NCBI GenBank assembly: GCA_964016885.1
Contig: OZ024746.1
Span: 77,624,001-77,688,000 of the forward strand
DNA from: Eledone cirrhosa
Lineage: Eukaryota
Direction of reading: 5' to 3'
Length of the DNA: 64,000 bases
The notes under the pieces are model-generated. The model was not told where the DNA came from. It made no database searches and saw nothing but the letters and a program-made list of their open reading frames with translations. Below, one piece after another: positions 5,165 to 58,550 of the stretch (the stretch's first letter is position 1; each line of letters opens with the position of its first letter). Made by a program: the position numbers and the translations under genes.

Positions 5165-7456
<2,292 letters not shown>

Positions 7457-7532
7457 TTACCCGTCTAACCCATGCTAGCGTGGAAGAACGGACGTGAAAC
7501 GGTTATGATGATGATGATGATGATGATGATGA
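7457..7532 (+). mobile_element. Isolated RTE-type 3' tail ending in (GAT)n
   Basis: cccgtctaacccatgctagcgtggaagaacggacgtgaaacg followed by (gat)n; the same terminus as the RTE/SINE copies elsewhere in the window. Confidence 0.8.
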
Positions 7533-7704
7533 TAATACAATATGTTGAAAAGATAACACACTAGAGAGAGAGATAGTGCGCCATCAATCAAACAGGGAAA
7601 AACCACCAGTGTATGGAATCTATAGCCCATGGAAGGCAGAGTAGACACACAATAATTAAAAGTATAAATTAAAGTGTAAATACATACCTCGATAACTATC
7701 TAAC

Positions 7705-7785
7705 ACACACGTACAAATCCAAAGAAATCTGTTTCGCCAGTAAGTTCTTGACAGAAATGATAGCCCATGGTTCATCAGTGTGTGT
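7705..7785 (-). ncRNA. Type I hammerhead ribozyme (left-arm copy; stem I closing pair mismatched)
   Basis: Minus strand reads acacaca-CTGATGA-acca..tggc-GAAA-cagattt cttt ggatttg-TA-cgtgtgt. Confidence 0.7.
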
Positions 7786-8046
7786 AAGGTTATACATTTC
7801 AGACAACTCTACGAGAATCTAAAGCGACTGTCCAGCCACATGTGGGAGAGAGAATTCGCAGCGTGCCTAGGGCAGTAACCAGTGGCCTCTGAGGGACGAG
7901 CTGCTAGAAAGGGCAGCCCAAACCACTCAGAGAAATGTGCTCAATCAAACAGAGAGAGAGGAAAGACTGTTATAGGCACGCTGTGAATTCTCTCTCCCAC
8001 GTGTGGCTGGACAGTCGCTTTAGATTCTCTTAGAGTTGTCTGCCTT

Positions 8047-8127
8047 ACACACGCTGATGAACCATGGGCTATCATTTCTGTCAACAACTTACTGGCGAAA
8101 CAGATTTCTTTGGATTTGTACGTGTGT
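8047..8127 (+). ncRNA. Type I hammerhead ribozyme
   Basis: Stem I acacacg(8047-53)/cgtgtgt(8121-27); CTGATGA 8054-60; stem II cca..tgg (A.C at 10.1/11.1); GAAA 8097-8100; stem III acagattt/ggatttgt; GUA cleavage triplet 8118-8120. Confidence 0.8.
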
Positions 8128-8644
8128 GTTAGATAGTTATCGAGGTATGTATTTACACTTTAATTTATACTTTTAATTATTGTGTGTCTACTCTGCCTTC
8201 CATGGGCTATAGATTCCATACACTGGTGGTTTTTCCCTGTTTTATTGATGGCGCACTATCTCTCTCTCTAGTGTGTTATCTTTTCAACATATTGTATTAT
8301 AAAGATCTCGGGGTTCCTTCTCCTTTGAGCACATTACTGACAGGGAATAGCGAGAGTCTTTGGGTCCCTTAATTTATCGTATATATATATATGAGAAAGA
8401 GAGAGAGACCCTTGGTGGGAATAAGGGGGGAATAAAGGTAAAATAGGACATAGCTAGAAGATAAAACAAAGAGAATAATAATAATAATAATAATGATAAT
8501 AATAATAAATGTCAGTATAAAATATCATTAAACAAAACCAAGCCAACATTAATAATCCATTAATTTAACTTTGTTGTTACGGTTTGTTGCAGACATTATC
8601 TACTTTTTGTATTGCAATCTTGTAGCTCAGTAATTATTGTACAG

Positions 8645-8968
8645 CGTTGATAGTGTTGGTGGTGGTGATGGTGTTGTTGTTGGTGGTGTTAGTGTTAGTT
8701 GTGGTGTTGGTGGTGTTAGTGTTGGTGGTGGTATTAGTGTTGCTGCTGGTGGTGGTGATGGTGTTGTTGGTGGTGCTGGCGTTGTTGTTGTTGCTGGTGA
8801 TGGTGTTGTTGTTGGTGTTGGTGGTGTTAGTGTTAGTTGTGGTGTTGTTGGTGGTGGTGGTGGTGGTGGCGTTGGTGGTGATGGTGATGGTGTTGGTGGT
8901 GTTAGTGTTAGTTGTGGTGTTGGTGGTGATATTAGTGTTGCTGTTGTTGGTGGTGGTGTGGTTGTTTA
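8645..8968. repeat. GGT/GTT low-complexity tract
   Basis: Direct inspection. Confidence 0.9.
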
Positions 8969-9741
8969 TTTTTATATATATGCAATATTTGTTAATTTTT
9001 CTCGATTACAATCAGAGAATCTTGCATATGTTACAGAGGATAGCCTCACTTCTAAAGTCTGTTACTCCTACTTCACATGTTGTTGCTGTTCTACTTGATT
9101 TTTTTTTTTCTGTAGTACATTTGCTTTGAACAAGAACAACCACAATTATTTTACACCCCTTCCCACTTAAAAAAAAAAAATAATAATGTCATAAAAAAAT
9201 CGATTTTATTTTATCTTCCATTTTTATTTTTTTTTAAATTTCCTTCAAAATTTTTTTAATAGTGGTGTTTTTTTTTTTTCTTTTTTTTTTTTTACTACAG
9301 AGCCTTTTATGACAATTTGATGTTTGAGTGTTTTATTATATTTTTTCTTTAAATATCTCCTTAGGATGGCAGCCCATTAAAATTTACAGGAATTGTATGG
9401 CTATTAAATCTTTTTTAATTTGTTAAATTTGCTAGTAAAGGCAACAAATTGGTAGAGTTGTTAGAGCAGTGGACAGAATGCTTTGCAGGATTTATTCCAG
9501 CTCTTAGTTCTAATACTGCTGACATCATCTTTGCTTTTTATTCTCTTGAGGTTGATGAATAAAGTACCAGGGTTGATTCTCTCTCATCAGCTGCATTCAA
9601 GCTGAAGAGGGACAGTTGAGGTTCAATGGATGGAAATTTGTTGCTGGTATTAGTTACTGCAAACCAGTGGTCCTTAACCATTTTTTGTTCCATGACATCC
9701 CCTTCCCCTAATTTGTCCCCTAATTTGTCCTAGTATGTATG

Positions 9742-9801
<60 letters not shown>

Positions 9802-10303
9802 AGTATATATATATATATATATGTGTATATATATATGTGTATATGTGTATATATATATAGATGTGTATATGTATATGTGTATATCTATATATATATAGAT
9901 GTGTATATGTGTATATATATATATGTGTATATATATGTATATATGTGTATATGTATATATATGTATATATATATATATATGTATGTATATATATGTGTGT
10001 GTTTGTATCTACATTTGTATATATTTTTGTCTGTACTGTATGTATATGTTTGCATATTGCATATATATGTATCTGTTCTAATAATGTGTCTTAACTACTG
10101 GAACCAGTATTCTGTATATTCTAATCAATGTAAGACATGTAGGATGCCATTTCACCAGATAAAGCTCACGTTTAAGTGCCCAACATATTGTGTCAAGAAA
10201 CAGAGCAGGGAATTTAGAATGATTTGGAATAGTTTCATTGTATATTAATTACAAATCCTAATTACATGTGATAGTTTGACATTATGTACATCATCTATGG
10301 CTG

Positions 10304-27890: not shown

Positions 27891-28114
27891 ACACACACAC
27901 ACAAAACAAAAGTCCGGAGCTCAGTCATCTGGGTCCTGATTTCTTTCATACATATATATATATATAAATATATATAAAGGTTAAACAAGGTTCAATGAAT
28001 AAATCAAAGAATGAGTTTTACAATAGATTGGAAGCACTCAACAGAAATGGTTTTCCGGAGTTATTAATATTAATTCAAAATATTAACAAAAATAGACATT
28101 CGTGTGATCAAGCA

Positions 28115-28181
28115 TATTTTATTATACATATTTCAGAGGTACCGAGCTATCTTCAACAGTACGTCCTCATCAGATAAAATA
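28115..28181 (-). ncRNA. Type I hammerhead ribozyme (left arm)
   Basis: Minus strand tattttat-CTGATGA-ggacgtactg..cggtacctct-GAAA-tatgta-TA-ataaaata; stem I is 8 Watson-Crick pairs. Confidence 0.78.
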
Positions 28182-28253
28182 AGATGATGCATGACATACC
28201 CTGACATCTGAATCTTAACCAACTACTATGTCAGGGTATGTCATGCATCATCT

Positions 28254-28320
28254 TATTTTATCTGATGAGGACGTACTGTTGAAGATAGCTCAGTACCTCT
28301 GAAATATGTATAATAGAATA
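28254..28320 (+). ncRNA. Type I hammerhead ribozyme (right arm)
   Basis: Stem I tattttat/atagaata; CTGATGA 28262-68; stem II gga.gtactg/cagtac.tct; GAAA 28301-04; self-complementary stem III atatgtat; AUA triplet, predicted cut after 28312. Confidence 0.78.
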
Positions 28321-28969
28321 TACTTGATCACACGAATGTCTATTTTTGTTAATATTTTGAATTAATATCATCATCATCATCATTTCATTTTACGTCCGCT
28401 TTTTCCCTGCTTGCAAGGGTATACACACACATACACACATTCATATGTATATATATATATACTTATACACACATACATATGTATATATATATATATATAT
28501 ATATCATCATCATCATCATTTTACTACTGGCTTCCATGCTGGCAAAAAAAACAAAAAAACAGACATACATATATTGCTACGCATTTGTAATTGCAAATAT
28601 TTATCACTTCATATGATCCCTAGTGCCCTTTCTCTCCTCTCCCTTGCTCAGTTCTGCTATCTGCCCCCCCCCCCCCCTCCTCAGTCACAGTAACAATGGC
28701 TGGTATGCAGAACACTTTTTTTTTTCTTTTTTTTCTCAAGCATATCTGCACTGTCAAATGCATTTACCTTTGAGAGACCTGCTGGAATTCCTCATTTGAG
28801 CCGCCTACCAAAGTGGTGAAGTGATGTAGTGCTGAAGGAAATGTTGTTTGAATATGTGATTTATATAAGTGCTGAGACAATTCAAGTAGCAACATAGTAA
28901 TTTCATAGGAATTCTTCTATCTCCTACTGGTAGTGGTGGTGGTGGTGGTGGTTATTGTTTCTTATATAT

Positions 28970-58294: not shown

Positions 58295-58550
58295 ATTTCA
58301 TACAAAACGCCAGCACCAGTTTTGCAAGAGATGTCAACATGAATGGACCTATTATTTTTATCTAAAGACATTTTTTCCAATTCCAGCCCGCCCATCCCCT
58401 TAATCTATTTTATTTCTCATTCTTTCTTCTGAAGAAGGACTAGCGTCCGAAACGTTAAGATCCTCTTCCTGCTATATCAAGCGTTAACCTAATATATACT
58501 TTCCATATACTGTACTGATTGTGTTGTTATTTCTGTTTACCTTTTACATA
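58295..58550 (+). mobile_element. Penelope-like pLTR remnant
   Basis: RCQHEWTYYFYLKTFFP (from 58329) resembles the R..RE...I..L.T..P.GLN end of PLE GIY-YIG ORFs; it is followed by a minimal hammerhead; the tail gattgtgttgttatttctgtttacctttt also occurs near 2603. Confidence 0.65.
58425..58460 (+). ncRNA. Minimal type I hammerhead ribozyme
   Basis: tctt-CTGAAGA-a-ggac tagc gtcc-GAAA-cg-TT-aaga: stem I tctt/aaga, 4-bp stem II, palindromic stem III acgt, GUU triplet. Confidence 0.82.

Follow-up and report, generated by a model that had tools for sequence, protein, structure and literature searches.

The window analysed here is a 64,000-nt stretch of the Eledone cirrhosa genome (assembly GCA_964016885.1, contig OZ024746.1, positions 77,624,001 to 77,688,000), and the feature of interest within it is a foldback built from two copies of one repeat, which we term family A, lying head-to-head. 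The left copy is a 443-nt part of the repeat unit on the minus strand (7974-7532), while the right copy is a 408-nt part on the plus strand (7973-8380), with a 2-nt overlap (TA) between the copies at their junction (7973-7974). The inverted arms, 7532-7869 and 7973-8300, are identical at 322 of 338 alignment columns, the differences being six substitutions and 10 nt missing from the right arm, in agreement with the near-identical arms described in an initial annotation of this locus. That annotation had placed the feature at 7532-8300, as two arms around a separate spacer, and both its boundary and its layout prove incorrect. The insertion spans 849 bp (7532-8380), the right copy extending 80 nt beyond 8300, and the apparent spacer (7870-7972) is a minus-strand stretch of the left copy's own unit. 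This assignment rests on the order of spacer and arm in other copies, where the spacer, in ribozyme orientation, immediately precedes the arm; spacer and left arm are continuous, and the left copy is recovered as a single profile match (7976-7530). The outer end of the left copy falls at the first of two sites where copies of the family end (end-site 1) and that of the right copy at the second (end-site 2), so that a plus-strand "tail" between the two end-sites (8301-8380) is present on one side of the insertion only. The left flank is an (ATG)n microsatellite (7505-7531), the right flank is (TA)n (8381-8392), the usual target of the family, and no target-site duplication is discernible. At 7459-7531 a short repeat end, possibly a SINE-like tail, runs into the (ATG)n tract, and similar ends are seen near other loci. 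As the annotation had stated, no open reading frame is present, none of at least 90 aa being found inside 7532-8300.

The arms and both of the outward-facing type I hammerhead motifs they carry are real. The right motif (8047-8127, plus strand) consists of stem I (8047-8053/8121-8127), core strands at 8054-8060 and 8097-8100, stem II (8061-8096), and stem III (8100-8119), with the cut predicted from the motif after 8120, the position given earlier. The left motif (7705-7785, minus strand) has its predicted cut after 7712. CUGAUGA, GAAA, and GUA are read from plus 8054 and from minus 7778, and core CUGANGA, GAAA, and the NUH triplet are thus present in both copies. The stem details reported previously also hold, namely a 7-bp Watson-Crick stem I and 36 nt between the core strands with A.C at the base, as does the defect of the left copy, whose stem I closing pair is an A.C mismatch (7779). 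The right arm is damaged as well, by a 10-nt deletion at 8042/8043 that is shared with one of 30 other full arms. Stem III, previously called a stable 8-bp helix, does have eight pairs, but three of these are G.U and the hammerhead is not the minimum-energy fold: unconstrained folding finds a misfold, above which the hammerhead lies by 7.7 (right) and 10.2 kcal/mol (left), these energies covering secondary structure and no tertiary contacts. The window copies are therefore predicted to be poor candidates for monomer cleavage. The Rfam hammerhead models, a check proposed in the initial annotation, gave no match at E<=5 in window positions 6000-10000.

The repeat is abundant. The 3.0-Gb genome was searched with the arm, which drew 2,668 candidates, 40 of which were scored. 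An exact 15-mer of the core has 256 matches in the genome against 2 in the control, while a relaxed core pattern has 877 against 4 and a disjoint pattern 506 against 1, the last two sets including a few matches unrelated to the clade; together with its sister families (below), family A forms a clade of about 1,380-1,400 motifs. Family A is also abundant in four sequencing runs of unrecorded kind. In other copies, the arm continues to the equivalent of position 8384, followed by 9 nt and then by the next spacer, and tandem cores spaced 534, 538, and 542 nt apart (L092, L124, and L125) give the unit length; a 5-mer of a sister family occurs at L112, and the window copy itself is without a tandem pair. 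The longest ATG frame on the sense strand of the unit is 64 aa, and the GC content is 0.39. Family A is thus a non-coding repeat with a tandem unit of ~534 nt that carries a hammerhead motif. As circles, its units are predicted to be weakly self-paired (z = -1.9, -1.3, and -0.4), while sister-family circles give -3.7 and -4.2 (family B) and -2.1 (family C), with 25 shuffles for each value. No published description of family A was found in the papers searched, and it may already be catalogued in Repbase or Dfam.

Over the unit, family A has weak homology to sister families B (449-472 nt) and C (463 nt), which share its two-ended layout. Between families, pairs 3, 5, and 7 of stem I change from A-U to U-A, pair 7 of stem III changes from C-G to U-A, and the triplet changes from GUA to GUC. 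Stems I and III are 95.7% paired in an alignment of 28 sequences, a value reached by 0 of 500 shuffles, and slid-alignment controls are 12-42% paired. The number of covarying pairs alone is not above shuffles (301/500), and because stem I is a dinucleotide repeat, a slide of +2 still gives 0.88 in family A. An intact core was parsed in 58 of 61 other family A copies, part of which were chosen on the core. Preferential conservation of core nucleotides, the test suggested in the initial annotation, is found: 3 of 330 core cells are changed (0.9%) compared with 297 of 7533 elsewhere in the arm (3.9%; Fisher p = 0.002, for BLAST-selected copies that are related and not independent). Rfam at the gathering score found no hammerhead in three sister-family loci. 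Despite this, on sequence comparison we consider the hammerhead motif genuine at the family level, because stems I and III covary between families.

The three families differ in how readily the hammerhead is predicted to form. Stem III is 20-22 nt with eight pairs in all of them, while the base of stem II is A.C in 62 of 68 family A copies, in place of the canonical G10.1-C11.1, a pair retained behind a bulged base by all 18 of the family B copies. In folding models, 13 of 18 B copies and 11 of 16 C copies have the hammerhead no more than 1 kcal/mol above the minimum, with median distances of 0.0 and 0.1 kcal/mol, compared with 1 of 68 A copies and a median of +8.0 kcal/mol (+4.5 under a looser constraint); four unclassified ribozyme copies are excluded from these family fold and stem comparisons. 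Family A appears to have lost G10.1 and to have a weaker stem II. Within family B, the stem III hairpin occurs in two versions (L176, L184, and L190-L192 versus L180 and L193) the distal part of one being the reverse complement of the other's, and this suggests a template-switch flip.

How copies of family A are inserted is recorded in their ends. Of 104 3′ ends, 94 map to two fixed sites separated by about 84 nt, 40 of them 165-179 nt and 54 of them 250-262 nt past the cut site, on a reference sequence that stops at +262. TA repeats follow 85 of the 104 ends. Head-to-head inversions are found at 34 of 56 sampled loci, the window itself (L001/L002) and the overlapping L086/L093 being dropped from the locus tallies, with one end at each end-site in 26 of the 34, and the ribozyme is present on both strands at 6 of the 56. 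These inverted copies, two ends, and (TA)n targets are the published insertion signature of Penelope-like elements (PLEs), whose insertions are described as carrying an inverted 5′-truncated copy and a 30-40-bp tail on one end, with a bias for microsatellites (PMC8557442). The PLE protein is reported to cut and extend both target strands, with two internal start sites bounding the tail and the RNA left uncut (PMC11167929), and PLE repeats are described as lying head-to-head, with action in trans on pLTR sequence (PMC3846280). Hammerhead pairs 100-700 bp apart on opposite strands are also on record (PMC4209133). The 5′ ends of our copies are scattered, with 1 of 16 in family A and 2 of 28 in the three families lying within 60 nt of the cut site (p = 0.63, in a test biased by the many loci picked for containing the ribozyme), and some loci traverse the cut site twice or more. 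Cut linear monomers were rejected as the template for want of any excess of 5′ ends at the cut site; from this, and from the loci that cross it repeatedly, we infer an uncut or multimeric RNA, or a circle.

Candidate sources of the required protein are present in the same genome, in which 10,597 GIY-YIG candidates were detected and 150 were scored; RT and GIY-YIG are both present in six of ten ORFs tested. Those at L061 and L064 carry the CX4CxxC linker, a feature described for Neptune elements (PMC8557442). The L061 ORF (L061:3309-6122, minus strand) is an uninterrupted 938-aa RT + GIY-YIG frame with terminal repeats of ~1.1 kb, and no canonical hammerhead core was found nearby. A pLTR homologous to the unit was absent from 50 GIY-YIG loci compared by blastn and profile, of more than 10,000 candidates, apart from one independent 70-nt insert, and three relaxed core patterns likewise found no homologous pLTR. 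Four loci that might have pointed to a PLE link were set aside: TA arrays separate the copies at L035 and L116 from the ORFs, so that these are read as independent insertions, and L107 and L145 are tail-to-tail neighbours. Two chimeric junctions were found. At L089 (1184-1820), a family A copy lies head-to-head with an L064-type PLE 3′ end that bears a ribozyme, and at L222:1-2000 (L234, L237), a family C tandem lies head-to-head with a truncated PLE ORF and its 3′ UTR, in both cases with no TA gap. These we read as probable products of a shared integration machinery, each being a single event with a different PLE partner. Among 30 loci of the L222-type PLE, including the 3′ UTR, only the chimera matched the unit. 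The L222-type PLE has two 3′ ends ~40 nt apart and, by eye, a minimal hammerhead with a U3-A8 core variant.

Taken together, we consider it very probable that the foldback is a single insertion of a non-coding ~534-nt hammerhead repeat into an AT microsatellite, likely made by the RT and endonuclease of an autonomous PLE, probably of Neptune type. A tandem master copy would be transcribed into RNA that may serve uncut or may first be self-cleaved to a monomer and circularised. The PLE protein would then cut both target strands and prime cDNA on each, at two internal sites ~84 nt apart, and both cDNAs would end early and be joined head-to-head at a microhomology. In the window insertion, both cDNAs would have run beyond the ribozyme, and each strand has one motif because both happened to pass it. 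The copy would since have decayed neutrally, and in any read-through transcript the ribozyme is predicted to be trapped in a long hairpin. Against this account, no sampled autonomous PLE shares the unit sequence, the two chimeras point to different partners, and family A circles are predicted to be weakly self-paired, while the tail is 80-84 nt compared with the published 30-40 and the ribozyme fold is predicted to be disfavoured in most family A copies. Alternatively, instead of forming a self-standing non-autonomous unit, the copies might be truncated pLTRs from an autonomous PLE with ORF-bearing copies outside our sample, given that 5′-truncated ends are reported to dominate PLE families (PMC8557442) and that 50 of the 10,597 GIY-YIG candidates were compared. 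This is improbable, since in many loci the unit closes on itself, running from end-site 2 through the 9 nt into the spacer and next arm with core-to-core distances of 534-542 nt, and since tblastn over 183 loci gave 9 with a PLE protein match, none of which reads as an in-line continuation of the unit.

The timing of the inversion can also be questioned, as the foldback could be younger than the insertion, a single copy having undergone local inverted duplication or conversion, or could be an artefact of assembly. The two arms are indeed 97.9% identical to each other, compared with family means of 95.2% and 93.9%; the base at 8070 is missing from both and present in 30 of 30 other copies, among which a few changes that the arms share are rare or absent. 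One template RNA would account for such shared changes, however, and the right arm has 97.2% identity to the copy next closest to it, while the outer ends fall exactly at two different family end-sites, as in the 26 inverted loci counted above. An artefact is unlikely because the arms differ at six sites and by the gap, and formation after insertion is altogether very unlikely. The insertion had been called young, and its arms do depart less from the column majority (1.5% and 3.0%) than the family median (3.8%), a measure that gives relative age only. The initial annotation went further, treating a foldback with two ribozymes as special and suggesting that the cleavage of a host transcript might be gated by ADAR editing or by formation of the hairpin. 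It is true that the antisense arm is transcribed first on either strand, that the predicted duplex reaches -632 kcal/mol, and that rare changes are shared between the arms, but the same layout recurs at 6 of 56 family A loci, in sister families, and in a second family in the window. Both window ribozymes carry private lesions, the arms showing private decay, and no host exon was detected, with no Pfam domain passing the cut-off in 20 window ORFs tested. A-to-I editing would be expected to strike the A-rich core and not to release it. Upon stepwise folding of the plus-strand transcript, every tested ribozyme position pairs with the left arm once it is made, so that the 328-bp duplex would capture the ribozyme during transcription, predicting silencing and not a switch. 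The gating proposal is thus unsupported, and co-option as a switch has at most a slim chance of being correct, given that PLE enzymes routinely leave two back-to-back copies.

Other hammerheads are scattered through the same DNA. The second double-hammerhead foldback in the window (~28067-28368, cores at plus 28262 and minus 28173) belongs to another family; its arms are 93% identical, its stem III is short, and its stem II spans 32 nt. Further hammerhead-like cores are found at 58429 and 17497 on the plus strand, the former having a short, palindromic stem III of the kind usual in minimal PLE motifs. At L116:3480-3620, a further family contributes a very short foldback with two hammerheads, next to a long, uninterrupted PLE-like ORF without a Pfam match. 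Long-stemmed hammerheads are diverse in the genome, including other tandem units of 459 nt (L062:7010-7919) and a motif with a 50-nt stem II (L080:1042).

While the window locus is ordinary, family A is modestly interesting, as it shows that many well-covarying animal hammerheads whose stems II and III are long go undetected by Rfam. The two fixed priming sites, the lack of a 5′ pile-up at the cut site, and the Neptune-type chimeras make the partnership between retrozyme and PLE testable in one genome, as the many copies do for the question of an uncut or circular template. Sister family B, in which the ribozyme is the predicted minimum-energy fold, would be a better test object than the window copy. 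It is conceivable, and we put it forward tentatively as somewhat less than an even prospect, that the clade is an undescribed one, invisible to Rfam, whose extended hammerheads (stem III of 8-9 bp, stem II of 35-41 nt) drive retrozymes with monomer cleavage and circular RNA, mobilised in trans by Neptune-type PLEs. The insertions would then record this mobilisation through their pair of priming sites, the tail, and the head-to-head chimeras with ends of autonomous PLEs. If so, they would be direct genomic evidence for the movement of animal retrozymes, which the literature deduces from co-occurrence and phylogeny.

Compared with known systems, family A is a new member of the non-LTR retrozymes, or non-autonomous PLEs; the link to PLEs and to a non-autonomous, retrozyme-like family that the initial annotation had drawn is supported by the insertion signature, the tandem units, and the lack of an ORF. 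As described for animal non-LTR retrozymes, which likewise have a short non-coding tandem unit with one type I hammerhead each, a GC content below 50%, forms from monomers to multimers, and co-occurrence with PLEs (PMC7229834; bioRxiv 10.64898/2026.07.22.740005), family A combines all of these features, and the base of stem II is likewise mismatched in axolotl HHR_Amex2 (U.U, where family A has A.C). Monomer cleavage is already reported as demonstrated for coral and mussel retrozymes (PMC7229834). The unit of 534-542 nt is longer than the 150-450 nt given as typical, within a stated range of 51-972 (Li et al., 2026, bioRxiv 10.64898/2026.07.22.740005), and relative to the retrozymes covered by these sources, family A and its clade differ in the 8-bp stem III, the 36-38-nt stem II, and the lack of detection by Rfam, with family A mostly dispersed and bearing PLE-type inverted ends. 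With endonuclease-bearing PLEs, as they are described (PMC8557442, PMC11167929, PMC3846280), it shares partial tandems, an inverted 5′-truncated head copy, a one-sided tail, two priming sites downstream of the ribozyme, a microsatellite target, and an uncut template, while differing in having no ORF, a tail of 80-84 nt and not 30-40, and no homology found to an autonomous pLTR. For a squid, Rfam hammerheads have been counted (PMC6962438). The type I topology is that of the minimal metazoan PLE hammerheads (Cervera & de la Pena, 2014, PMC4209133), with which sister family B also shares the unpaired base after A9. In contrast to these, where stem III is a short palindrome or absent, and to the short stem III reported for animal PLE hammerheads (PMC6765202), the clade has a long stem III, a trait in common with the large helix III described for PLE ribozymes of fungi and protists (PMC4209133).
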